A DNA stretch of 64,000 nucleotides from Lingula anatina (GCA_051362555.1 CM120640.1:54600788-54664787), one strand, 5' to 3'; shown: positions 9,315-52,363, numbered from the stretch's first letter. Notes: a model not told the origin generated them from the letters alone. Program-made: numbers and translations.

Positions 9315-12300
9315 ATGAAGTTTGAAGAAATTATTCCACATTTGGGAGAATTTGGTAAATACCAGAAAACGCAACTGTTCCTGCTCTCGTTGCCGGTTTG
9401 GGTCACAGGAATGCACGCATTGGCGATGACATTCATAGCGGCTTCACAGGACTTTAGGTAAGCACAAAAACCTCCCAGAAACCTACAATAATAGTATTAG
9501 GGATTCACAACTCACGACGTCAAAAATCTCACGGAAATAATTAAGATATGTCACCTTAGGTGTTGAGAGTTGTACGTATATAGAAGCTTGGGTTCTTTCA
9601 TGCACTGAGTCAACAGTGGGAACTTTAACGATATAAACATACCAGTTGATGAACAGACGAGTACAGAAAATGAATCAGATGTGATGATGTGGGTCTTTCT
9701 GGGTGGTGTTGTGGGTTTTTTGGGTGGTTGTAGCTCCTATTCTTCTTGATAGAAAAAACTCTTTAACACTTCAGGTCTTGCCCGAGGGGCGTTTGTTTGA
9801 TAAGATGTGGATAAGGGTAACCGGAATTAATAACGCTCGTTAAAATTCATTCCAAAGATTGTAGAAGTTGTCCACTGGCAGAAAACGACGAGATGTCTAT
9901 TCTAAGGAAGTCTTATTCGATGTCCATTGGAACAAAAATTGGTTCCATCATATTTGCCTCCATATGGATGGTAACTATTGGACGTATTTTTACTTTTCAA
10001 AACTGCAGGTGCTTTATCCCAGGTTGGGATGATTATTCCAACAAAACTGGTCCCCTCAACTACTCCTTGATATTTCCTACTGATGAAGATGGGCAGTATG
10101 ACCGCTGTAATATGTATGCTGTCAACGTGACCAGAGGGGTGTGGTATACGATACCAGACAATACAACTGTCACAGTGCAGTGTAACCAATGGGTCTATGA
10201 CACGTCACAGTACAAGACGTCTGTTTTCTCTCAGGTAAATTATCATACTTAGCCCTGGTTTGGTTCGGCTTCTTCAACATACAATCACCAGGCAACCAGA
10301 TTATCCAATAAGTAATCAGAACACCCAGCAGTGGACCAATGAAAACGTTTAATAAAAAACGCATGCAAAACAACGGACTAACAATATCGCATATGGCCGA
10401 CCACTTGAATGCTTGTTGCGTAATCCCCCCGGGAAATCTATTCAATGTCTAATCGGGAATTAAGCTTTTAATCGGGTCGCCATATCTGATCCGCGGATCA
10501 GTTGGTCCGCTTTTCTGTATGCGCTCAAAGACAAGCATCCAATTCCACGGCAGTCCAGCAATCTGGTGCAGCTGGCAGCTCTTTGAGTGCTCTGAACTTT
10601 TGAACAGGATATTTTCTTGTATGTTTGATCAGTAATAATAGTAATAGTATCAGTAATAGACAGACAGACAGTCAATTGGTCTCAGTCTGAAAACAGTTCA
10701 GTGCATAAAATGAGTTAATGAACGGCTGCTCTGGTCTGCTGTTACACATGTGTGCACAGGATATAAAGACACTTTGCTGCATATTTGTTGTTTAAATATC
10801 TTATATACAGTATTTAAAACATTTTTTGTTTTGTTTAATAATACCAATGCAAATTCGATTTCTACATTTGTCCTGTTATACCCAACCATGTTATTTCTAT
10901 GTCTCCAGCTCAGCTGATGTCATTTTTAAATGTCATTTAAATAATATTAAATATCCCTGTTGTTCAATCTGAGAAAAAGTACAGCGAATGTAGTAGACAG
11001 TAATACCCCCGTCCCACTAGAGGCAGAATGAACAAGAATGTCGTCAGAAAGACAATTCTTTGTGCATTCCTGGATATCCAAAGAGCATTCTAAAAATTCC
11101 GAGTGCATTTCAAATAGTTTAACCCATTCTTGTGGTCGGCCTGAATGTTAAAAACTTTCGAAGTGCATTCCAAGTGGAAAATTATTGAATGGCATTTGAA
11201 TAGTATTCTAACTACACTATGACTGCATTTTAAATATTCTAACGGCATTCTGGCAACATTCGAAACATTCTGATCACATTCGAGGGATATTCGAACTGAC
11301 ACATGACTTAAGACCCCCGTCACACTTATTCGGAACCAGCAGGAATCAAGCTGAACCAGCCAGAATGAATTAATTGAAAAATTCGTGCCATAATCGGGAA
11401 AGAATTTCACATTGCAGTCAGAACATTCCAAATGAAATTCAAATGCCGTACGAGTGTGGTTTGACTGCTGGCCGAATACAGGCTGAAGTATGTAAGAAGG
11501 TGCCTCGAATGATATATGAAGCGAACTCAAATGCAGTCAACTGCTCCCGTTATGGCTGCCATGATGGTTTGAAATATAAAATAATGCAGCTGAATACCTA
11601 AAATACTTAATTAAAAATTACTTTGTAACATGTTTAGAATGTAACACGATGCCCAGAGTATAAATAACGCCACTGGAATGATAACTGATCATAATGTTTC
11701 GAATGCTGTCGGAATGCCGTGAGAATATTTAGAATGCAGTGATAGTGCAGTTAGAATACTGTTCAAATGCCATTCGATAATTTTCCACTTGAAATGCACT
11801 TCGAAAGTTTTTGACATGACAAAAACATTCAAGCCGGCCACAAGAATGGGTAAAAATATTTGGAATGCACTCGGAATTTTTAGAATGCTCTTCGAATAAC
11901 CTGGAATGCACAAAGAATTGTATTTTCGACACCATTCTTAATCATTCCGCCTCTAGTGTGACGGGGGTATAAAATCCCGCCAGAATGTTTCGAATGTGCC
12001 TCTGATGAGGTGAAATATTAATTTTGCCAGCAATCGAACTACACTAGTACGCCATTCAAAGTATATTCTAAATATTCTTACTGCCTTCTTACAGCATTAT
12101 AGATATTCCTAGTTTTCCAACTACATTCTAACTGCATTTGAGAGCTAAAACAGCCGAAAGTGCACTCATCATTCCAGGCGAATTCAAGCGCATTCTGAGT
12201 ATTCCAACGGTACTCTTACAATGATTAAGGTCAATTTAAATTTTTTTCCCGAATGTGGTGCGAATTTTTTTAATTCTTCATTCAGTCTCACTTAATTGGA

Positions 12301-17946: not shown

Positions 17947-20900
17947 TTACAATCTGGTGTTCATTCTTTGCCACTTTTCCACCAATTTATTAATCACTCT
18001 AGGATTTTTCTTCAGCCATCGTGTAGCATACTTCATATATTTCTTTCCATGCGGAGTAAATTGTTTCAACTTCTTACAAAACTTTGACCTTGTGCTTGGA
18101 AAATATTTCTTAAAGATGGTTCTCACTACCTGAACAGAATCACCTGAAAAGACAGTGCACTTAAGTTTATCTATCCAATAAAGATAGCATTCACCAACTG
18201 AATTCAACCATTTGAACAGAGAGAACATTCACTGAACAATGACAATAGTCAAGCATTACAAAATATGGAAGACCAGATGTGACTTCTTTTAACAAAATAT
18301 AAAGGAGTTTAAGTCATGAAAGGAAGATACCCCTAAAAATCACAATGCACTACCATACACACTCTTTTGTAGATCAGGCATATAGGCCTACTGGAGTATA
18401 TAAAGACATTATTATTTTTCAATAAGAGCAATTTTCTTGCTCCCAACTTTCTTGCTCCCAATTTCCCCCTTTTTTAAACTAAACTAAAAGAATATGCTCA
18501 CCCTGAGGCTGAACAGGGAAGGGGGTGGTGTCAAATGTAAATGGTTGCTCAACCTGAGAGAAAACATTCTTGTTGAATGCAGTTTGGTTAAACTTTTGCC
18601 CCTGAAATTAAAAAAAAATGTTGGAAATAAACTGCTGATGTGATCACAGTTGAAACTCAGATGCAAGTATTTGGAATAGTTACTGATCCCACTTGCTGTT
18701 GCCTCTTGCCTAGTGAAATGTGATCAAGGCAGCGAAGTAGGTGCAAGGAAGAAAAAAAACAAGTAAAAAACACACTATACTATGGATCTATACCAAATAA
18801 CCATTACTTAAGTTGGAGAGAATTAACAGCTTTAAGGCTTTGATGGCGTGTCATAAAACTATCAGTGGTATCTTTAGAATACAGGCCTTTTTCACCCCTT
18901 CACCTGTTGAAGCAATACTGTGAGGTTTTAACTTTTCTTGTGCAAACACTTGTACACAAACTTAAAACTTTAAAATAATCAGAATGTTACAAGATGGTTC
19001 ACATTTGTCTTAATGCTCACATTATTTAAGTCTGAAATAAAAATAATAATAAATGCCCTTCACATTTTTGAAGAGTACCTTTGACAATGCTTCCTTCAGC
19101 TGATTGATAAACAATAGCCAGCGTGGTAGGTAATATTTCCCAACCAGTCCTCCCCACTGCTTGGCAGCATAGTCTAGGATCTGTGAAAAAAATTTTGTTA
19201 AGATAAACATTTTATCATTCTTGATTGAAGATATCTAGGGCAAAAAGTATCTGACCACTGTAACAGTTGCAAAAATGATTTATTCAATTTGAGGTGTTAA
19301 TTTTTTGTAATGCAAACTGCCTAAAAATTATTTTTTGAAAATCAAAATTCCATGCATTTTCCTACAGTAGTTTACTATCTGCCAACCAGCACATACTGTC
19401 TCAGTCCACCTTTTCTACAATATATTAAGGCTATTTAGTCAACAACTTTAAGTAAACATATAAAGACACCATTAAAGGCTCCATGTTGTGATAAAAAGAT
19501 GCCAGCCATACCTCCCCATTAGGACCCCACAGTGTAACTTGATTCCTGGCATTGTATTCGTATAATTTCCTCTCAGCCTCAGACTCGGCCATGTTGTGAG
19601 CATCAGCTATCCAGGCACCCAATAAGAAGTGCTGATCACTGGACAGTAAGGTGTCCATGTCTGTCAGCAACTCTATGAACATCCCACTAGTTGTACTGGA
19701 AATAAAGAAAACAGTATATGTTTCATGCATAACACATAATATGGCAGGTGTTCACCAAAGACACTTTCTGGAATATATGAAACAAATGTACGTAATAATC
19801 AACCATAGGATGCATCTTAAAACTTGCATTTTTGTTGATGACCCTTTTTGAAAGTCTAATTTCTAAATAATCAAAATAATGGCAACCAATCCCAACACAT
19901 ATTAAAACTACCATTAGATATAACATTTGCTTCTAATGATTTTTCTGTTAGTAGCTCTTTTCCTACGTGGTTTCATAAAATCTTACTTTCTTAAATTATA
20001 TTTCCATAGTACTATGAGAAAAATGTGCTTTCTCATATACATACTTAAATAAAGTTGCATTTTTGCTTTTATAAGCAGTAATCATGATGGTATAGTACTG
20101 CAGTCCCAGCAGCTGTAATACTTGTCTTGTCACATCTACCAAATCATATCTGAAAACAACAGGTTTTATCATCAAATATTCATACTTTATGCCAAACTGC
20201 ATAACAAATCTAATCCAAAGCATATAACTATGACATGAACAAACAAAGGAAAAATTTGACATTTCTACAAAGACAGTTGTGATGTTTTAACATTATTGCT
20301 ATTTCAGAAAAGAAAACCTACCTGAATAAATCACTACTCTTTAGTTTTGAACTGTCAGATACAAAATATTTCCATGCTGCAATCACAACTTTGGGATCAT
20401 ACCATACCTGCAATATTGCAAACAATCCCAAAACTGTCATTGTTTTTCTAAACAATGAAATCTGAAAATCTGTAAATTATTAGCTGAAATCTGTAAATTA
20501 TTAGATGACAGTTTCCTACTTAACAAGGTTTGTTGTTTGTAGCTGCATAGCAAAAAAAACGTTGATGCTAGCATAATTCTTTTTTAAAAACAAGTAATTG
20601 AATTTTTATCAAACCAAAGTTAAAAATAGGCAAATATATTTGATTAATTTTTTTTAGTTTCTGGCAATAATTCTTAATGACAGTATTAGTAACTATTGGA
20701 TACATACAAATCAATGAAGATTTGCTTTAATCTATCTACTCATGGGTGAAAGTTGTAAAAACCGAAAATTCTGAAAACATAGCTTGCAATTTCTCATTGC
20801 ATTTACGTAGACCAAAAGAAGAAAAAAAATAAAAACAATAAAACTGAAGACTGAAAATCCTGAAATCAGGCATAATCCTGAAAATTTTCACCCATGTGTA

Positions 20901-22522
20901 CTACACTATAATATTTTTGCAAAAACCATGATTTTTCATGCAGCCTTTTGTGATATTAGCTGGAAAACACTATTTTTGCAATATTTTTCTCAAATTTTCT
21001 CTCAAAGAAGATGAAAATATTTTAGCCAGACTATTAATCTATTATCAATGCCATTGTAACCAAAGGATATATAGCATGTCAATGGAATATGAAGACAACT
21101 AATTTTAAAAATAAACAAACAATGAAAATAACATGGAAATGAAGATAACATGAACATCGTGTTAAGTCCTCTGCGCCAATTCTGTATGTGTAATATACAG
21201 GATACACAGCAGAGTCTACTTACATCAGGTTTTATAGGTGGACTCAGCCTTGGTCTCTGTGTGGGAATATTGTTGTTTGAAAAGTCATCATGTCTATCTG
21301 TGCAGTTGTATATACTATGCTAACATCAGTCAACATGCACAAAGAAAAAAAAACATGCAATCAATCAATTGATGTCAAACATGCAATTCATTCTAAGTAA
21401 CAGGAGATATCAATCGAGTTTGAAAAACCTCTGTCCCGGTGAACTTACATCAGCTTTAATTTTCAGTGCTGGCCTATGTACCACGACATAACGTCCATGA
21501 TGCTTCAAATTGGTGGTACTATTGTACACACTGCGCTGGAGTTGATAGATTTTGAGATGAGAAAAGAGTAGGTAGCCTACACTTTATCCACAAAAAAGAT
21601 TCAATTACACATTCACCATATATGTTTAATAAGAAATAATAATGGTGTAAAATTATCACCACATAACTGGTACATTTACAAATCTTTCTTTGTCTCTTTC
21701 ATATTTCACTGAATGATTAAAAAAAAAAAAAAAAAAAAAATCTCAGAATGGGTGACCCTTTTTTTATGATCTAGAAAACTAATTAATGTTCACTATTTGC
21801 TTCATATCAATGTGAGATATCACATACTGTTCTAATATAACAATACAAATGTCCAGCCAGCAAAAACATATTAATATAAAATACATAATAAACAAGTACC
21901 ATAAGATATATCCAGCCAGTCTGAACATTAAGGCTGCTTATACCATATCTCCTGTCAGCATAGTTCATAAACCTACCAACAACAACAATCTGCTTTAGTA
22001 TTTTATGTTTTAGGCAGAAAAAAAAGAAAAACATATCAGTTTCAATTTCTAAAAGCACAAAAATTTTCAAACCAGAAAATGCTTCACAAGCCATTGCAAA
22101 TTATCCATATAAACAAGAAAGTTCATATCATGTACATATAATATATATAGTCTTTACAATACATACACGTATGTGTTAATAACCAAATAAAAATGTATTA
22201 TTAATCAATAAAAGTTCATTATACTTAAAATGACCCACTTCAAACTCACCATGTGATGGTGTTGACTGGTTTCTCTCTGGCTATGTTTTCATTCATAAAT
22301 TCATAGATGACATCATTCTGATTGATGCCCTCTGGAGTCAAGCCAATCCCTATCATTGAACTATTAGGGTATGCCCTGGCTTTGAATGGTCCCTGGATAA
22401 CCAACAGAGGAGGTTCATTTTCATTTATTGCACTTTAATAGCTGGTAATTAAGAAGTGTTTTTTTGTCATTAATAAGCATTTCATGAGTATATATAATTT
22501 TAAACATTTCAAGTCTATCTTA

Positions 22523-22567
<45 letters not shown>

Positions 22568-25500
22568 AGTTCAATCTGAATGACAAAGAAAAACTGCTTT
22601 AAAACATGTTATAATACCCTGTGTTGAATAGATAGAAATGTTAATTAGTACAGGAAAAGTTGCCATGCAAGGGAAAATATTTAAAATACACACAAACACA
22701 GGGACTACAAATCCATTTTTAGACTGAAGGTGTCTAACACATTTAATATACACATCGATAATGTAACAATGAATGATGCACTCCTTTGTCTCAGTGACAG
22801 TAATATCAAATATTCTTTAAAATACGTAACAGAATCTAATAGATGCTTTTATACATGCAATTGAAAGTAATACATATTATTATTATTATGTATCTGTACA
22901 AATATATGACTCAATGTACACTGAAAATAGACTAAAATACACCACTTGAGGTCACTAGACCATCAGAAATAACAGCAGACTACGAGAGGCAAGGGTAACA
23001 GTGGAAATGCTATGTACATGCACTCTTGTCAGTTATGCCAAAGAATATATATACTTTCTAGTACATCTATTATTGAACTTGACCAGTGTCTTTATTTTTA
23101 AACTACCTATGTTTTGGACAAATTTGACATGGATTTCTGTATCTGAATTCAGCCTTATTTTCCCTACTTTGTCATTATAATAATGGACACAATATTTGGA
23201 ACTTTGAAGGTATACCTGGTTTATGTCTTCAATCTGCCCCTGCATATAATTGCCTCCCCCAAAGTCATGCAACATGCACCATATAAAAGGCTGGCCATAG
23301 AAAGACTCAAACCTTTCATATTGGGGATACAACTCGGCTCGAAGATCAAGAAGTATCATGCGACCCTAAAAATGCACGCAAAATTCATGCTCAAATCAAA
23401 TTTTGAAATGAGCTAATGGGTAAATGTGAAGTACTAACTAGTATTATAACAATAAAAAGGGTTTAGTATTGGATACCTCAGTTTGAATATCATGCAGCAC
23501 TGTAAAAGAAAAAAGATTTGCAGGTGAATGTTATAGTTTTGGAATCTACACATGCTCTGCAGTTAATGCTGAGGTGGTCCTGTCATAAAAAATCCATGCA
23601 TCTTCTAATAATGAAGATTAAATGTGATGATGTGAAAAAATATACCATACTAGTATAAAGCAAATGAAAAACAGACATGCTTGTTAATCCACAAGCACTA
23701 CTATAACAGGTCTATCTGGAATGAAATAATACTTATGACATTAAGAAATACGATTCATGTCTCAATGTATGGCTGAAGAGTTTTATTAGTGGTACAGTCT
23801 ACCTTGTTGACAGACTCTGTCTGCCCCTGAAGCCCTAAAACACCACCAAAGTTATGGAGCATGCACCATATAAATGGCTGCCCTGCAAATGAGTCTAACT
23901 GTTCATACAAAGGCTGGCGCTCTGCATTCAAGTCAAGAACAATCATTCTGCCCTAGAAAGAAGTTATTCGGGGTCATAAAACCTGATACTTGTAGAAATA
24001 AATTTGTATTAACGAATTGGCTTTTAATGCCTTTGTATATCTATTTTAACATATCTTTTTCAGAAAATTGTCACTTGTATTTGAAAAATATTTCCAAGTT
24101 ATAATTTTGAATAAATAAAAATAAGATTTTAAACATTTTCAAATAAATCAGAATTATATTTAAACATAATCAAAATTACTCTCTGTCGGCTGATTAAAGG
24201 GAAAATGCACAAGAATGTCCCAAACCAACCTGTGGCACTGACGTCAGCAAAGCCTTAGCCCTGTCAGCATTCCAAAATGAACTCAAGAACAGCCAAGCCT
24301 GCATAAGCCTAGAACATATGTCAAGATGTCAAGACCAGTGGAATAAATTTAGTATTATCAGCTTTTTAAGAACAAAGCACCTAATACAGCTTAACATTTT
24401 TTCCTCACCAAATTAAAAGAGTTTGCAACAGGTTATATTGCCATGCATCTACAATAATATTTTCAGTTATTTCTTGGATACTCTCAAACTACTCAGTTCA
24501 ATGTATCACATCAATGCCAGTTACCATATTGCTTGAGGATCACCTGATTCCATTCCTTTAAACACAGCTTTTCCAGCACCAGATATATATGACAGGGCCC
24601 TGAAACAACACAGCACTGCTTACATACTTTGTTAATTATCAAGCTCTACATTTTCAAGAGTGGATTTAGATCAGAAATTTACATACCAAATGCTTTTATT
24701 TCATTGTCTACCGCTACCAAACATAGACAATTACAAAAATTTTAATACATTGTGCAAAAATGCATTAATTACATTCAGCTTTAAAGTGAGATATAAAATG
24801 TTACCCTGATGATGGAGTCATTTCATTAAAAGTGTCAGCATTGTAGATGTGGTTGGTTCCATTAAATTCTTTACTCATCTGTCAAAAAAAAAAAAAAACA
24901 ATAATATGATAAACCCTCAATAAACCTATTCCCTCAATGTGGAAGGAAATAGTTTCATATTACAGTGGTATGCAAAACACATTTTGAAACACAGAGCATA
25001 TTGATCAAACTTTTGATAATTTTAATGACCAATATTTCAGTTCAAGATGGGGCAATACTCTACAGAAAAAGAAAGTACAAACATATTTTAACAAAAAGTG
25101 AGTAAAATTGAAAACAGCAATTGTATTCCTCTTGTTCATAAAAATCCAAAACATTTCCCTCTTGCCACATAAAAAATTATTTACCTCTTCAATAAATGCT
25201 TGCCCAACTTTGACAAACATGGGATCATTAGGGTCAAGGAGATACGTGCTGTAATAAAAAATCTTCAAGCTTATTTATACCACATCTTTATAAACACATG
25301 CCTGCACAAAAAACATCAAATTCATTCATTAGAGAAATGTAGATTTTGTGACCAATTACAGATTGAAGAAGATATTTAAAAAAGACATTCCAAAAGGGCA
25401 CACATTACTGTGGCCAGCAATAACATCACAAAGCAAGCCCAGCAAAGCCCTCAAAAGGAAAAAGGATAAGCAACAACTGGTGCCATGACCTAGGCTGATA

Positions 25501-28500
25501 CCAAAAGACTAGGCTTAAATTATAGAGAGCTTAAGGAAGACCTCAAGACTGGGGCTAATTGAGGGAACTTGTAGGTGGCCTATACCCCAGTGAGGCAATG
25601 CGCATAAGTAAGCACAGTAAGTACTCAAACCACTCTGTATTCAAACCAATGTCACATTATAACAGTTATATAGTTTGACAGTGCTTTTGATCTTCACATT
25701 ACTAAAATGTATTTTTTACTTTGACATGTTACCACTCTATCTTATTTGAGACAAGTTTCAAAATGTGCCATTTATTGCCAAGTAGAAAAGTCTCACCAGC
25801 AGTATTTGGGATCTGCAAAACCTGCCCATCCACCCAGCCTCGTACAGTTGACATTAGGATACACTCTGAAATTAAAATCATCCATATCAATAACTTACAG
25901 ACATATATCTCATGATACTCTTTTTCACTGCAGGGTTTATCCCTAATGCTATATTCTAGTTGTTGACTTGTTAGGAATCAAAGTCTTATCAAGGATCAAT
26001 GGCACTGATATGTCCAAAAAACAATTAGATATTGATAAGTCTATTTGATATCAAAAGATAAATCTTTAAATAAATTATGAATCAAAATTTTAATACTTCT
26101 ACTCCACTCCAAGAATACCTTGTAAATCCTTCTGGGATATGTCCTGCAAATCCTGGCAGTACAGGCAGCATACCCAATTCTCTCATTCGTCTCAGTATCT
26201 GATGTTGTAGCTTTAGCTGGTTGTCTAACCAGGTTTGTGGTATGGGTCCACCAAACCCACGCATATTCCCCATTCTGCCCCTAATTGTAGAATATTTCAT
26301 TTGGATTAAAATCTGAATACTACCGTGTAACATGAAAATCTGACTCCCATGAAAATGTGACTCCCCAGTCAGATTTTCATTATGAAAATGTGACTCCCCA
26401 GTCAGATTTTCATAATGAAAATCTGACTCCCCCCATGAAAATTTGACTCCCCCTCCACAAAACTTCATACATCTTATTTTATTTTGAGTATGTGACTGTG
26501 ATCTTGTAGTATGTGAAATGGAGGATACATTGGCGCTTTTTTGTAATTTGCAGGTGAAAATTTTCATGAAAAAATAAGAAAATTAAAAATGTCCACTTAA
26601 TCGCCTATTGTCTCCCCTATGAAAAAGTTATTTAATATTTGATGATCATTTCAACACCTTTTCTTTTAGGATACTTATGAAAAATATATTGGAAATATTT
26701 AAAGGTTTGATGATAAAATAGTGAAAACATGAAAAAGAAATCATGAAAATCTTTATTTTTACACCCATGAGATTTGGACTCCCATTGAGAAAAGGACCTA
26801 TTTTATATTCAGTCACCATACCACTGTTTTCCACATAGTTTGCATAGAGATGGATATTTTGTCATTATTTGAAAGTTTGATGATGAAAATTTTGGTCAAT
26901 ATTTTTAAAACAAGTATCCATCTTTATTCTTGTAGGTTTTGCACTCCCATGTCAAAACACTACAATTTCATTATGTGCACATTTTTAATTTTCTCATTTT
27001 TTCATTAAAATTTTCACTGCAAACTACAAAAAATGTGCCAATGTATCAACCATTTTACATGCTACAAGATCACAGTCATATACTCAAAATAAAATAAGAT
27101 TTATGAAGTTTTGTGGCGGGGGAGTCAAATTTTCATGGTAGAGTCAGATTTTCATTATGTGCACATTTTTAATTTTCTCATTTTTTCATTAAAATTTTCA
27201 CTGCAAACTACAAAAAATGTACCAATGTATCAACCATTTTACATAATACAAGATCACAGCCATATACTCAAAATAAAATAAGTTTTATGAAGTTTTGTGG
27301 AGGGGGAGTCAAATTTTCATGGGGAAGTCAGATTTTCATTATGTGCTCATTTTTAATTTTCTTATTTGTTTATTAAAATTCTCACTGCAAACTACAAAAA
27401 AAAATGTGCCAATGTATCAACCATTTTACATACTACAAGATCACAGTCATATACTAAACTAATTAGAGATTAATGAATGTTTTTTTGTAGGGGAGTCAAA
27501 TTTTCATAGGGGAACCACATTTTCATTATGTGCACATTTTTAATTTTTCTTTTTTTTTATGAAAATTTTCACCTGCAAACTACAAAAAAGTGCCAATGTA
27601 TCATCCATTATGCATACTACAAAATCATAGTCATTTACTCAAATGAAATGAGATTAATGAATGTTTTTTTTTGGGGGGGAGTCAAAATTTCATGGGGTGA
27701 GTCAGATTTTCATTATGAAAATCTGACTGGGGAGTCACATTTTCATAATGAAAATCTGACTGGGGAGTCACATTTTAGGGGAGTCAGATTTTCATGGTAC
27801 ACCTGTCCGGTAACTTTTCATTACCTGTTACTATGAGCGGAAAGGCCATCCTGTCCATCATACAAAAATAAAGCAATGTAAAATCAACAATGCATATTAG
27901 TTCTACTGGAAAAACTATTGCTATGTAATTTTAGCACACAATTTGCAAATCTTGTACACTTACCAAGCAAGAAAAGCAGGACCAGCAAAGTGCTCATCCA
28001 AATCCTTTTGTGAGAGACCCAGTTTGAGATAAACCTTAAATGATAAAAAATTAATCGTGTTTTTAACAAAGCAACTTGGAAAAAATCAAACAACAAAAAA
28101 TTTATTTTTCAATCATAACTTCCTGTTACCTTCTGCCATATTGCCTCCTGTCCAGTGAAAGCCAGGGGTAGGTTTATTCCATTCAGGGCCATCCAGTCAA
28201 TCTCCCGCTCCCACCTTGTCCAGTTCCACCACACAAAGGAGTAGCTTGATGTACACACATTCTGATAGTAGCGGAACCTGAGAGCAAAAAATAAGTTTTA
28301 AAAATAGACAAAAAAAAAAAAAAAACAAAACAAAACAAAAAACAAATAAATAAATAAACACCCCATGAAACAAACTTTGACTTACTGTAGCACTGATCAA
28401 CTCTACAATGATCGGTTCTAAATATAAAAAGGAATTTATTACATAAGTACTGACTAACTGCACAATCTCTATATAATGTGCTTTAAAAGGTTATGTATAC

Positions 28501-30489
28501 TATAGCAAAATTAGCACATCTTGCCTGTAGAACATTTAAAAAGTAAAAATACCTATCATTGGATGTTATTTTTATACCAGGATCAGGAACTGGTCTAAAT
28601 CCTCTCCAGGTTTTCTGGTCTCCACCCCAGGAGAAGTGAAAGCCCTGGTAGTGTTTGAGATAATACTGTAAACCCCAGGCAGCAGCAACTCCTGTTGTAC
28701 CAGTGACATGGATGACATTCTGCACTGTTTGCAGCTAAAGAACATATATCTTGAAAGTTAATTATTTTCATAGATGATTGTGAACATTTATGTACGAGTA
28801 ATATTGGGTGGATAACAATGCACCATACCGCAATTTCAATTTCGCAAAACCTGTTAAACTATACTGTACTGCAACTACATTCTACTTGATACAAATACAT
28901 AATGTTGTCTGGAATACACAGATGTTTTGACTCAGTACCTATCATATCCATATGATGCTCAATACAAAAATCATTATGATCTTTAAATGCATAGCTGGAA
29001 TAGAGCTACATGAATCAGATTCAGCTAGCTTAACACATTAAAGCTAGCAATGGCATTTTCATTGAATGCAACAAGCTGCTTGTGCATCTGCTATGCACAT
29101 TATTTTAAACCAGGACCAAATTCAGTTCAATGAGTGCCACTAAAATGCAAGTGTCTTGAATCAATGGAACATGGCTGTACATGTATATTTACCAGTAGCT
29201 AAGAGTAATATATATGTAAAGGTAGATAAGAAATAGTTGTAGTTAACATCATATACTGATACAATTACAGTGCACATAAAGCACGCAGAAATTAGGAAGA
29301 CAAAAGAGAAGTACTAAAATGTATGAAATTTTAATTTGTAATTTCCATTTTAGGTATACACATAAGTTAAATGTAATATACTGAGTACAAGTAAAACAGT
29401 GATAGGAATACAGTGTACCTTAAAAGAGTCCCTATTTGGGACTCCTAACTCAGAATCTACTTTGAACTGAAAGAATTTGGCATTATCACCCAGTGCCCTT
29501 GTAGCTAGCGCCTTCACAGCAGCCTCCTGGATGTCTGGTGGTACCTTGGTGTGTAGGTGGTCCAACGTTGGAAACTCAACAGATGCAGTAACATGCCTGT
29601 CTCCAGGAGCAAACAAAAGAAACAAGATGACCTGAAAAACAATTTATGAGAATTATGTGCACACTGTAAGCCTGACTCTTCAGGATGCAGCATTACTTGT
29701 TTCATGTAAAGCAGCTTGCACATTCATGCATTAGTTCTCTGGTCCTACTAAATAGAAAAACCATGCATGAAAAATCCTTGAATACCTCAAGGTACATGCT
29801 AGTATGTATTCTGCTCCATGAAAACCACAAGAAAACCTCCCAAAAGTCAATGTAATTGGCAAATTTACCAAATATTTAGATAATTTAGACTTAATTTCAT
29901 TGCTAACACCCAATGCAACAGTACATATCAGAGACCGTATAGGAGTGCAAACACAAGAAATTCCATGCTTACACTGCATGTAGACTACATGGAGAAGATG
30001 ACAAATTAATGGAGTGCTGGTATAGTGCGGTGTAGGTATCATGCAGTAGTGTTTAAAGGGATAATAACTCTTCGTATGAGATTTATATTTCACAATAAAA
30101 ACATTGTGAATAACTCAGAGAAATGTGATATATATCTGTTTTACCACAAAAACGGCAGTTATAGCTATTATTCTGACATCTGAGCTGGTCTTCAGACCAC
30201 ATGACCTCCACTGAAGGCTGTACTCTGTCATAATCTCTTAAGAGATTTTAACAAAAAACCAAACTTTTCAGAAAAAAACCAGGGACTTACTTTGAATGTA
30301 AAAATGGATTCATTAACCATTGGTAAGTATGGGAAAAATGCTCCTTACTCCAGGAAAATTCATTTTTTGGCTAAAACAAAGAGTTATTATCCCTTTAATC
30401 TTAGATCCATAAATGAAAAATCCATAAATGTGTGTGTATGTGCATGTGTGTGTATGTTTTTAAAAAGAATATAAGTAGTATACATGTGA

Positions 30490-30557
<68 letters not shown>

Positions 30558-30885
30558 AAGAGAAAGTGATGTCCTAAGGCACGTAATTTAGTAGAACGTT
30601 AACAGGTTTAAATTGCACAGTGCATATTTGCTAATAAATAAATAAATAAATAAATGAATGAATGAATAAAATAAAATAAAATACTGACTGTCATTGTAAT
30701 TTTTGATCATCAAACCGATATTTCTTTTAAATTTTGGAGATTAAAATTTCAACCAAATTGAGTTTATGCTGTTGGACCCTTTGTGCCATAGAAATAGAAA
30801 GACTGTGTACTTCTATGGTTTGTACCAAAGAATTATAGCTCTTTTCCGCTCTTTTTGTACTCACCGCACACCGTGTTGACATCAT
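17947..30885 (-). CDS. NAGLU: Alpha-N-acetylglucosaminidase (GH89), multi-exon, with two duplicated exon pairs
   Basis: Exons (minus): 30865-30885 (MMSTRCA), 29419-29631, 28553-28734, 28130-28277 ([16 protein letters not shown]...[11 protein letters not shown]), 27964-28034 (GPAFLAW), 26119-26280 (GRMGNM...PVLPGFAGH), 25797-25865, 25185-25248, 24805-24878 (YNADTFNEM, catalytic Glu), 24525-24599, 24230-24308 (WLMQAWLF), [23803-23952 or 23216-23365], 22250-22392 ([10 protein letters not shown], second catalytic Glu), 21900-21972, [21449-21535 or 21224-21319], 20322-20407, 20045-20149 (YDLVDVTRQ), 19512-19695 ([14 protein letters not shown]), 19079-19180 ([10 protein letters not shown]), 18502-18601, 17947-18143. 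The N-terminus is hydrophobic and signal-peptide-like. Confidence 0.97.
20741..20896. mobile_element. Small hAT-like MITE in NAGLU intron
   Basis: Terminal inverted repeat catgggtgaaa...tttcacccatg with internal ctgaaaa repeats; no clear TSD. Confidence 0.55.
21224..21319 (-). CDS. NAGLU: NAGLU alternative exon B2 (96 nt)
   Basis: tag|[32 protein letters not shown]|gtaagt; phase 0-0. Confidence 0.88.
21449..21535 (-). CDS. NAGLU: NAGLU alternative exon B1 (87 nt)
   Basis: cag|[29 protein letters not shown]|gtaagt; phase 0-0. Confidence 0.88.
23216..23365 (-). CDS. NAGLU: NAGLU alternative exon A2 (150 nt)
   Basis: ag|[50 protein letters not shown]|gtatac; phase 0-0. Confidence 0.92.
23803..23952 (-). 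CDS. NAGLU: NAGLU alternative exon A1 (150 nt)
   Basis: ag|[50 protein letters not shown]|gtagac; phase 0-0. Confidence 0.93.
26323..27810. mobile_element. ~1.5-kb non-autonomous TIR element built from nested tandem repeats
   Basis: Termini ta|ccg..tgta.catgaaaatctgactccc and its inverse ...cgg|ta. Palindromic ~30-bp units (atgaaaatgtgactccccagtcagattttcat) lie at both ends; a ~180-bp unit occurs about 4 times at ~26970-27715 and once inverted at ~26400-26590. Confidence 0.75.
30490..30553. repeat. Compound (GT)n(GA)n microsatellite
   Basis: Direct reading. Confidence 0.95.
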
Positions 30886-31123: not shown

Positions 31124-31195
31124 GGGGATGTAGCTCAGTGGTAGAGCGCACGCTTCGCATGTGTGAGGCCCCGGGTTCAATCCCCGGCATCTCCA
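31124..31195 (+). tRNA. trnA-CGC: tRNA-Ala (anticodon CGC)
   Basis: GGGGATGTAGCTCAGTGGTAGAGCGCACGCTTCGCATGTGTGAGGCCCCGGGTTCAATCCCCGGCATCTCCA. Canonical cloverleaf, A/B boxes, anticodon loop TT-CGC-AT, oligo-T Pol III terminator at ~31200 and TATAAA at about -35. Confidence 0.97.
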
Positions 31196-31419
31196 CGTGT
31201 TTTTTTTCTTTTCTTTTCAAAATATCTCATGCATACTTTGAAAATTAAAATGTGGGGGGAAAAAACACTTACATTAATGAAAATAAAACAAATCAAAAAC
31301 CATTTAACATCATTACTACACACTGGTGAGCCCATCAACATAAAAATGTTTATTTAAAAAGATATATGTTCAATACAATGAAAATTACATTTCTGATGCT
31401 GTAAACAACTTAGTCAAAT

Positions 31420-32425: not shown

Positions 32426-43991
<11,566 letters not shown>

Positions 43992-48349: not shown

Positions 48350-51300
48350 AACATCTTATGTAGGTCCAAAGTACTTGGGGGTTATACTAGAAACAAATAC
48401 TGAGTTTAACTTCAGACCCAATAGTATATATTTTGTCGTACATTTTGTGATATCTGCATTCTGAGTATTTATAGCTGATGACAAACCACAATAAAATGGG
48501 TGTCTTCTTCCTTTGACCTGTGACCCAAAGCCCTTTGAATTATTTCTCCAATTTCTTCACCATTTTATCATTGTGACAGCTGTTAATGTAGGCAGAGGAT
48601 GATAGTAAATCTTCTATTTTATAATCTTATCAGAGTTATTTTTAACAGTATTGAACACCATTTTACTGCAAAAGGTAATTTTTTTGAACACCACTCAAGT
48701 TTTTTCTTGTATATATCTAATATTGTGGCACATTTCTTAAGCAACTATAAATATTAGAGCTTAAAATATTCACATATATATAAGTTAATTATAGGGTTGA
48801 AGCTTGATCGATATCAAGTTAACATTGTGAAAAATTATGAAGAACAGCCAGTGAAGTTTACCCCAAAATCTCATAGGTGGAAAGGAAGATTAACATGTGT
48901 CTTATCTAGTGAATGATGGATCCAATACTGGCTTGATATTTCTGATTTACCTAATTTTTTTTTCCAGTTTATAAATTGGTTGCAGTAATGAGAAAGAAAC
49001 TGACCCTGTCAAATTTTAGTATGAAAGCTAAACATTTTAATATAAAAAAGTTATTGCTTTATCTTTACTTAATATTATATTGAACTGTTAGGGATATTAA
49101 TGGCATATTTGGTGTTGCCGTTAGAATTATAAAGGTGTTTCTACATAGTTCTTGAAAATATTTCATTTGTGATTGAAAATGTTTGTTGTTGACCAGTCCT
49201 TTTCGAAATATGTCCTTATCTTGCCATTGTTGTTTTCAGGGATGCAAGCTTCTTATCTGAGGAGAATAATGAAATGGAGCGTATTCATCAGTCTTTACTC
49301 CAAGCATGTGAAAGTGAGAGTGCGGAAGATGAGACTGATGATGGAGAAGGCAAAAGGGAGGGCTGTGACACCACCATGATTCTTGACGACCAGGACATAG
49401 AACAGTTAATCAAAGATTTAATAAGGATCAGCCATGAAGAATTCATGAAAAGCCGCCAAGACCAAGAGCAAATGGTGGCTGAGATAGTGGACATGTGTGA
49501 GAACAGTTCTCTGGACAAGTTAAACCTGTCTACTTATTCTTTGCAAGAAACATTAGAATCTGCAACTGATAAATTGATTCCGCTACCCCAGATTGCAGAA
49601 TTGGAATCAGAGCCATCTTATACACCTGGAAAAAAGTTAAGTGCCATAGACTTGAGAGAGGTGACAACTTTCACTGATGCAGTGCGGGATGATAAATCTC
49701 CAAGCTGTCTGGACACTGTTACAAGTGAAACTGCAAGCGATACAGAGAATAAATTCTCTGTGATGGAGACTGCTGATACTGAAGAAGTGAAACCCGCAGC
49801 AAACCTAAGTTCACCTGCCCCTTGTGCAGAGGCATTTTCTGGTGGAAGCACAATAAACCCATCCTTTCAACAATCAAAATCTGAGGTACCTAGTTTGAGT
49901 CAACTGGTTAAAGAAGCTTGTTACTCAGGAGAAGAAGTCTGTAATTTGCCACCATCTAGAGGAGAGGCTGTTGAGATTATGGAAGCAGGGCTGATTTTGC
50001 CTGATGCAAATGTACCAGAAGCAGAAATGCCATGTATTACCCTGAAAGGAGGACCATTAATGTCCACACCAAGGACCAATAAATTCCAAAAAAACAACAA
50101 AGATCCATTTTCTCCTATAATAGCATTTCCTTCCTGTACTAAAGGAATTGACACAAGCACCCCCGGCAGATTTAAAGGTGTTGAAAAAGTAAGGCATTTC
50201 AAAGAATTTAAAGCGTACAGTGATGGTGAGGATGAGGAGGAAGAATCTGAGCCAGCTACAGCAGGTAGGAAAATACTAAAAGCTAAGAGGCAGATACAGC
50301 TGTTGCCAAGCTCAAATCTTGATGGAAATATCATGCAGTCAGCAGGTGATAACACATTGGTTACCCTACCACAAAGCAAAAAAATAATACCTAATGAAGA
50401 TGACACTTTAGGCAAGCTGACTGAGCAGAGTGAAGAGCAGAGAGACTTTAAGGGGGACAAAGATGATGTTAACCTGTCTGTGTTAGAGAGGATGCGTTTT
50501 TGTCTCTTACAGCAGATTCAAGATATCAACAACTCTGAGCCAGATGAAGCCTTTGAGAGCCATACTCTGTGTGCAGAACAGGCTCTCAAGACCAAAACCA
50601 CTGATACCACTGAACAAATAGTTAAAAAAATAGAAAGCAAATCATCTTTCATATTGTCCCTCCAGTCTGCAGAATTTCTGCCTAGTGTATCAGGTGACTC
50701 AAATGCAAACAAATCGAAAGTAGGAGAGAAACCAGGGGAAAATAAGGCTGAACAAAATATTTCTACTGAAGAAAATAAACTAGCTGATACCAAGGTTATA
50801 CCCAGTCACACAAAGCAAAATATGATAAAAGAACCAGAAATTCAAGAATTAGACATTGCTACCAAAGAAACCAGATGTATCATTCCAGAGAGGTGCCAAA
50901 CTCATTCAAATGATCTTACCTTGCAACATGATGCCAAGACCAAAGTGGTCCAGGATGGTAAAAAGACTAAATTTATTAGCCACTGTGCAACATCTGTGAA
51001 GGATGTGCCTGTAATATATGTGAGTGGTCTCAAAGTGAAGGAACAACCAGTCGAAAAAGATGCTAGTTTACCTTTTAGCCAAATTGTAAAAGATATCAAA
51101 CAAGATACAAGAGAACCCCCAGCTCCAGTTGTATTCAGTGATATGGTGCCAGACACATGTACAAGCCAAAACAATAACATTAAAATTGCACAAGAAATAA
51201 CACCTCTGCCAAATAACATCTTACCAGTTGGATCCCAAACTCCAGTAGAAGAAGCTGAGATATCCGCTGCTGATAAAGCGTTCCCACTTGAAAAAGATTC

Positions 51301-52363
51301 CATTCCTGTTCTCGGTGAACCTGGACAAAGCAGTGATGAAGGACAAAGAGAGACCTCTATTCCTGTTGCAAAGAAAACAAAAGAAAGAATATGCATAAGT
51401 CCAATTAGATACCCCACCACATTGAATGAAGTGACCAATAAATCTGTCAAAACTGACAGTTCTTCATATAAAAGGGATTCCTGTAGCCAAGGAAAGCAAA
51501 AATCAAAAGTACAAGAGAGACCAAAGAATACTTCTTTTGAAAAAGAACAAAAGAAGGTAATGTTAGATACCAAGGAAAACCAGAGGATGAAGGAAGTCAA
51601 GGCTAGATGGAAGTCGAAGGGCATACCATCACCAGAGGTTAATCTCACCTGTGCCAGTTACTGGAGAAAAAGAACCAAGGCCTCTACTTCAAAGTCAGGT
51701 TTACTGGAGGGGTCATCTCTACACAGCATACCATCAGTTAAGATACCAAACAAACTGAAACGTAAACGTAAGGAAGATTCCACCATGGAAGACACCACAA
51801 AGTACAAGAAACCAAGGATTGAAGAGGCAAAAGGCAGTGACCCTTATGAATTAAAGGAAAAAGTTGGGCAGCAGTTGGATGAGTTAAAAAGCCAACTCAA
51901 TTCTACTATTAACAAGATAATGACTGATTTCCAGTCTGAAAAGTACAAACTAGAAATGGAACACATTTATCAATATCAGCACCTCGTGATGAAACAAAAA
52001 ACAGAAATTATGGGATATATGAGCAACCAAGCTGCTACAAGACACCTCAATTGTGAGCATTCATTTTTGTTGCATAACCTTCGTCGTGGTCAGAAAAGGG
52101 AAATGTCTGAATTGGACACCAAATATAGGGGAAAAATTAAAGAAAAGGAAGCAAGTTACCAAAGGCAAAAGGCTGCTATAAAAGAAATTCTAAAACTTCA
52201 GACACAGCAGACAAATAATGTGGTAGGGTCCCTGTATGTTCCAGTTTCCTTCAGTTCGAAGTGTTCCAATGTGGCAGAACATGTCTCCCTCCTCCCAGCA
52301 GGGATAGCAGAGGAAATGATTGCAGAGGATGTTCTGTATGATAGATTTTATAAACATGAATGA
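48260..52363 (+). CDS. Uncharacterized ~1050-aa largely disordered, probably nuclear protein with C-terminal coiled coil
   Basis: Uninterrupted 1029-codon ORF 49274-52363, with acceptor ttttcag at 49239 in frame with the upstream small exon 48253-48327 (ATG at 48260: MKIIPEQG...MDSQG). Acidic/Ser-Thr-rich, with STP/SP motifs, a bipartite NLS-like KLKRKRK...KYKKPR and a heptad-like C-terminus. No family recognised. Confidence 0.82.

Follow-up and report, generated by a model that had tools for sequence, protein, structure and literature searches.

Two tandem-duplicated exon pairs in the NAGLU gene of Lingula anatina and their possible role at the rim of the active site

The NAGLU gene and its annotated isoforms

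The window, by which we mean the whole stretch of 64,000 nucleotides analysed here, contains the Lingula anatina NAGLU (GH89) gene on its minus strand. The gene has 21 coding exons together with two extra copies, a second exon A and a second exon B, and its RefSeq counterparts in Lingula anatina are XP_013404165/242/322/392/469. The Pfam domains NAGLU_N, NAGLU and NAGLU_C were all above cut-off in the three isoforms scanned. In the alignment, Lingula E329 and E457 correspond to E316 and E446, the catalytic pair of human NAGLU (available text of PMC12166291 and PMC13207710). Lingula NAGLU thus has the domains and catalytic glutamates of a GH89/NAGLU enzyme, and its exo-alpha-N-acetylglucosaminidase activity is predicted. 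The features of the gene are the following:

17947..30885, minus strand: NAGLU (GH89) coding span, ATG at 30885 and stop at 17947; all splice sites AG/GT, frames open
25797..25865, minus strand: exon E7, with the human W268 equivalent; single in Lingula, alternative in bivalves and a barnacle
24805..24878, minus strand: exon E9, with the first catalytic Glu (E329 = human E316); single
24230..24308, minus strand: exon E11, with the human W352 equivalent; single in Lingula, alternative in clams, a nemertean and insects
23803..23952, minus strand: exon A1, 50 aa (150 nt), human 376-425, HNFGG form; RefSeq X2, X4
23216..23365, minus strand: exon A2, 50 aa (150 nt), 32/50 residues identical to A1, HDFGG form; RefSeq X1, X3, X5
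22250..22392, minus strand: exon C, constitutive, PEG with the second catalytic Glu (E457 = human E446), phase 0-2
21900..21972, minus strand: exon D, constitutive, RRYG segment, phase 2-0
21449..21535, minus strand: exon B1, 29 aa (87 nt), net charge +5, H512 equivalent kept, basic class of ancestral length; RefSeq X5
21320..21448, minus strand: intron between B1 and B2, 129 nt
21224..21319, minus strand: exon B2, 32 aa (96 nt), net charge 0, long molluscan-type class; RefSeq X1-X4

Profiles for 20 exons were made from 99 homologues, with Lingula left out. The exon A profile gave two matches in the window (E 5e-29 and 1e-28), as did the exon B profile (E 2e-14 and 8e-11), whereas each of the remaining 18 profiled exons had one real match, with additional matches at E>=0.048; among these 20 exons there is thus no third duplicate beside A and B. 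A1, A2, B1 and B2 are each intact, in phase 0-0 and bounded by AG/GT. A first, sequence-only reading of this DNA had described two stop-free pairs of this kind, and exon profiles, open frames and RefSeq matches bear it out, as the profile counts do its statement that the catalytic exons are single. It had also placed the pairs on either side of the PEG exon; exon C does lie between them, but so does a second constitutive exon, D, which it did not name.

Several other features were recorded within and around the gene. The last NAGLU exon (17947-18143, minus strand) encodes a lysine/arginine-rich, predicted helical tail of about 50 aa that has no counterpart in the human enzyme, which ends before it; this tail might serve to bind polyanions or membranes. 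Intron 5 (26331-27792) contains a 184-nt tandem array of 4.1 copies with 33-nt repeats in opposite orientation on its flanks, resembling a small foldback or MITE-like element. The NAGLU start codon is preceded, at a distance of about 240 nt, by a tRNA-Ala(CGC) gene (31124-31196, plus strand), and also upstream is a gene of several exons that encodes ankyrin repeats and IQ motifs (about 32450-41100, minus strand). Elsewhere in the window are exons of MFS/organic-cation-transporter-like genes with a weak Sugar_tr match (1772-2779 and 9821-10249, plus strand) and an open stretch of 1056 codons without a Pfam match (49193-52360, plus strand).

Among the RefSeq models, X1 and X3 have the composition A2B2, X2 and X4 A1B2, and X5 A2B1. 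All five, which are automatic gene models, carry a single A and a single B, and none carries both or neither copy of a pair. The corresponding proteins from the window are nearly the same as those in RefSeq, with 796/797 identical residues for A1B2 against X4 and for A2B2 against X3, and 791/794 for A2B1 against X5. Alternative RefSeq models normally require transcript support, and RNA support presumably lies behind those of Lingula. A and B are therefore tandem duplicated exon substitutions, being adjacent homologues of the same phase with intact splice sites, and each copy replaces its partner in an annotated transcript of these automatic models.

The four single-copy combinations (A1B1, A1B2, A2B1, A2B2) are all open and stop-terminated, at 794/797 aa. 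Moreover, the frame stays open in all 16 inclusion patterns, with either, both or neither copy of each pair; the reading frame therefore cannot enforce exclusivity, and frame-based exclusion was rejected as a mechanism. The introns between the copies measure 437 nt in the A pair and 129 nt in the B pair, and the 25 longest of 230 inverted repeats gave no convincing docking/selector pairing. The combination A1B1 is absent among the five RefSeq models, which says little about coupling of A with B, because Mytilus edulis models (P0331, P0326, P0327), with three E7 and three B versions, likewise show 8/9 possible combinations. None of 205 matches was a short transcript-derived Lingula fragment phasing A with B (best identity 73% among the 120 listed).

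Exons A and B at the substrate pocket

By alignment, exon A corresponds to human NAGLU 376-425, and human R510, H512 and R519 fall within exon B, so that the residue numbers given in the first reading map correctly. L383, L407 and F410 are among the NAGLU site residues listed in the available text of PMC12166291, as is H512. The duplicated segments are thus at pocket-lining positions, as had been proposed. Exon A, however, does not exchange the pocket residues that had been named, the L383, L407 and F410 equivalents being the same in both copies. The differences between A1 and A2 adjoin site residues, at human positions 384, 409 (Asn/Asp) and 413-416. Since these three residues are unchanged, the choice of A would tune the pocket rim without rebuilding the pocket.

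A1 and A2 share 94/150 bases. Between them pS is 0.84 and pN 0.26, with pS<=pN in 0/2000 bootstraps, and their flanking introns have no mutual similarity. Synonymous saturation with low pN, together with unrelated flanks, indicates that the A duplication is old and that both copies are constrained. A clade of A1 and A2 was not recovered, yet it was not rejected either (AU test, p-AU 0.26), and the QGQ motif common to both copies is also present in one unrelated protein.

Exon B may bear more directly on the substrate. In our reading of the alignment, the H512 equivalent is His in B1 and not in B2. In the bacterial enzyme CpGH89, an extra loop (680-686) with W685 has a suggested role in GlcNAc-alpha1,4-Gal recognition and in hindering heparan sulfate binding (PMC8225759, available text). 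According to the cloning and deletion primers of that work, the W685 loop is four residues past the RP motif, inside the B segment. From RP to the exon end there are 7 residues in B1, chicken and Limulus and 9 in B2; the two extra residues of B2 follow the RP motif and make it longer than B1 and the vertebrate form at the site of the CpGH89 loop insertion. Position thus suggests that B would be located at the +1 (aglycone) site. When the CpGH89 loop was deleted, activity on a heparosan disaccharide rose twofold and 4MU-GlcNAc was turned over as before (PMC8225759, Table 2); because of the latter, a 4MU substrate would probably miss an effect of isoform. The shape of the GH89 pocket has been linked to mucin versus glycosaminoglycan preference (bioRxiv 10.1101/2024.03.27.586211, available text), and the available text of PMC3313936 holds nothing on catalytic subsites.

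AlphaFold models of A2B1 (pLDDT 93.6) and A1B2 (pLDDT 93.3) are both confident, and human NAGLU 4XWH was the top Foldseek match of A2B1 (TM 0.96, rmsd 1.5 A, 48% identity). In these models the A segment is made up of a helix plus two strands of the barrel, and the B segment runs as a long coil.

Alternative exons in relatives and the age of the B copies

We aligned 33 other isoform sets from molluscs, insects, hemichordates and others, using protein sequences only; this sample is biased, because the sets were chosen mostly for names showing several isoforms. The B segment is alternative at the same protein boundaries in 26/33 sets, with up to 4 versions. These sets come from bivalves of six genera, with as many as 4 versions in Mytilus californianus, from gastropods of six genera, with 4 versions in Littorina, from Octopus, and from the insects Periplaneta, Anabrus and Schistocerca. 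In two of the 26 sets, from the hemichordates Ptychodera (P0316/P0210) and Glandiceps (P0324/P0232), D and B vary as one block, a cassette that differs in size from that of protostomes. B is not alternative in the sets of Zootermopsis, Gryllus, Lineus, Antedon, Branchiostoma and one Mercenaria gene, and Amphibalanus is ambiguous. Some models carry two B copies in 9/26 sets, and some skip B in 3/26. Mutually exclusive use, as first proposed, is therefore what all five Lingula models display, but it is not enforced by frame and, in the models of relatives, not strict throughout.

Other exons vary as well. E7 is alternative in 7 sets (Mytilus, Ostrea, Dreissena, Amphibalanus) and E11 in 8 (Ruditapes, Mercenaria, Lineus, Periplaneta, Anabrus, Schistocerca); every version of E7 keeps its W268 equivalent and every version of E11 that of W352. 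Exon A is alternative in none of the 33, so that among the sets examined only Lingula has this module. As to whether the alternative exons are shared with relatives and under selection, the distribution of B and the substitution pattern of the A pair both speak in favour, but no alternative A was found in the sets examined. All four alternative modules (E7, E11, A and B) are among the site-bearing exons; the enrichment is not significant (p about 0.055-0.085), because 11/21 exons carry a listed residue.

Several sets show unusual forms. Amphibalanus (P0160, P0157) has an optional 31-aa segment after B with an RP-like motif at its end, and an alternative E7-E8 block. B reaches extreme lengths, 37-39 aa and 24 aa, in Mya (P0270), Dreissena (P0294) and the second gene of Haliotis (P0197), and these forms indicate, at the level of sequence, a wide length tolerance of the loop. 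The 1143-aa Gryllus bimaculatus model (P0001) consists of two partial NAGLU copies and is likely a fused tandem gene duplication; its high-scoring match was rejected as an exon pair, being a fused whole-gene repeat.

The two B copies of Lingula belong to different classes. Among 114 other B segments, the best matches of B1 are Dimorphilus, Limulus, Ambystoma, Priapulus and Strigamia, and those of B2 are Ostrea, Argopecten, Mactra and Haliotis, B1 and B2 ranking each other 96th and 75th. In a tree of 115 rows and about 31 columns, B1 falls within a 33-row HG[RK]-type (basic protostome) group (support 80/79) and B2 within a 21-row long molluscan group (support 84/93). A clade of B1 with B2 is rejected by an AU test on 38/115 rows, which were picked after the first tree was seen (p=0.0185). 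In Lingula the basic copy precedes the other, and judging from double-copy models it does so too in Haliotis, Octopus, Dimorphilus, Anabrus and Schistocerca; Lingula and Haliotis also have in common that the long copy follows the basic one. Because B1 and B2 are in separate cross-phylum classes, the simplest reading suggests that B was duplicated before the brachiopod and mollusc lineages separated and that copies were gained and lost afterwards. With about 31 columns, convergence could give the same picture, and the second B copies of insects and hemichordates may be independent.

The classes differ in charge. B1 carries a net charge of +5 and B2 one of 0, and the medians of their groups have the same values. 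In 10/10 sets with a basic HG[RK]-type copy and another one, which represent about five independent lineages, the HG[RK] copy is at +5 to +8 and the others at -4 to +2. The pattern is not universal across the B segments compared, since the strongly basic copy is mostly missing from bivalve, pulmonate and hemichordate sets and the single B entries of echinoderms and amphioxus, at -1 to +1, have little net charge. These echinoderms and amphioxus presumably still degrade heparan sulfate.

Possible retuning of the pocket rim, and comparison with known systems

Taken together, we think it fairly probable that this one NAGLU gene, with two tandem-duplicated pairs singly used in its models, employs splicing to retune the pocket rim and aglycone preference. 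At each site, regulated splicing would choose which rim loop is joined to a catalytic core that stays the same, and every isoform would still be an exo-alpha-N-acetylglucosaminidase. B1 isoforms would favour polyanionic heparan sulfate and B2 isoforms neutral alpha-GlcNAc-capped glycans, and the choice between A1 and A2 would make a smaller adjustment of the pocket edge or of the pH profile. Position and charge are what suggest a change of specificity between isoforms; against it, the shift in activity on deletion of the CpGH89 loop was no more than twofold (PMC8225759).

Alternatively, the exons might be genuine and under regulation and yet affect, in place of the aglycone, the pH optimum, the stability or the oligomer state of the enzyme, or whether it works in lysosomes or is secreted for digestion, an explanation that we find less likely though still serious. 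A2 is the more acidic copy (net charge -4, against -2 for A1), and its Asp at human N409, between L407 and F410, could shift the catalytic pKa. Tandem-exon substitutions are, moreover, generally surface-enriched and keep ligand-binding residues (PMC9741552, available text). This explanation accounts less well for exon B, which coincides with H512 and with the published insertion site of the specificity loop; B1 and B2 retain the same N-glycosylation sequon, and the signal peptide is common to the isoforms.

We consider it distinctly improbable that one copy of each pair yields a protein that is inactive or acts as a decoy, or that this copy is seldom spliced in and survives as a decaying relic. 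It is true that, among 44 A segments, none has an end branch as long as that of A2 (0.87), that A2 departs from the usual residues at human 413-415, and that B1 occurs in just 1/5 RefSeq models. However, the A pair combines synonymous saturation with low pN, all A copies keep L383, L407 and F410, and both B classes persist across phyla. Asp at human 409 was found in 32/346 motif matches, including non-alternative exons of Mytilus, Mya and Dimorphilus, in whose models it is the sole form present; the idea that Asn409Asp makes A2 a dead copy was rejected on these grounds, and Asp409 is unlikely to be inactivating. Finally, an assembly or annotation artefact (uncollapsed haplotypes or paralogue fragments) is very hard to credit and already largely refuted, for although the RefSeq isoforms differ at residues 25 and 82 (P0132, P0133, P0130 versus P0002, P0131), whose exons (29631-29419, 28734-28553) are single in the window, so that a haplotype duplication in the RefSeq assembly was probably annotated there as splicing, A1 and A2 are too different in sequence and flanks, both pairs are found in the window and in the RefSeq proteins, and no other exon is doubled.

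Retuning of the rim and aglycone preference is thus the reading that we retain for Lingula. More tentatively, and without calling it probable, we propose that invertebrate NAGLU could be a combinatorial, splice-assembled glycosidase. From insects to acorn worms, the pocket-rim exons E7, E11, A and B would have undergone repeated duplication; the B cluster would go back at least to the divergence of brachiopods and molluscs, and the exon A module would be an addition seen, among the sets examined, in Lingula alone. One locus would then yield a heparan sulfate enzyme and several other alpha-GlcNAc enzymes, of which vertebrates kept the basic form only.

NAGLU is the enzyme lost in Sanfilippo B, and what determines GH89 aglycone specificity, with heparan sulfate on one side and mucin-type GlcNAc-alpha1,4-Gal on the other, is known only in part. 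With natural cassettes that change single loops while the scaffold stays as it is, this question can be tested directly, and enzyme design could benefit. If the proposal is true, the repeated duplication of rim exons across phyla would be a clear instance of a lysosomal hydrolase whose active site splicing has tuned time and again, and it would hint that invertebrates have alpha-GlcNAc substrates that have so far escaped notice.

The isoforms themselves and the general device of tandem exons are already known. The Gnomon models of NAGLU in RefSeq, for Lingula as for molluscs, insects and hemichordates, contain the same singly used exons, with no label beyond isoform X1-X5. In the literature searched, as far as its text was available and with most subscription journals and the supplements of genome-wide splicing surveys outside its scope, we found no description of alternative invertebrate NAGLU exons. 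The nearest likeness is with exons 6a/6e of coq-2, mutually exclusive homologous exons that remodel an enzyme core near the substrate and are present in invertebrates, including molluscs and annelids, and absent in mammals (Tan et al. 2020, PMC7434440, available text). Coq-2 has one two-way switch whose change of product is proven (same source), whereas for NAGLU a function is suggested from sequence, with up to four separate loop modules across lineages and up to four versions of one exon. Exon A resembles the cases of KHK, PKM and ACOX1, in which the swapped region is beside the ligand site and core binding residues are kept; human tandem exon substitutions usually avoid ligand sites, and NAGLU does not appear in the available main text of that work (PMC9741552). 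Human NAGLU (4XWH) and bacterial CpGH89 have the same fold and the same catalytic Glu pair as Lingula NAGLU, and the vertebrate NAGLU proteins examined have one B segment of short basic length. Bacteria vary the post-RP loop between genes, whereas invertebrate NAGLU varies it by splicing in one gene.
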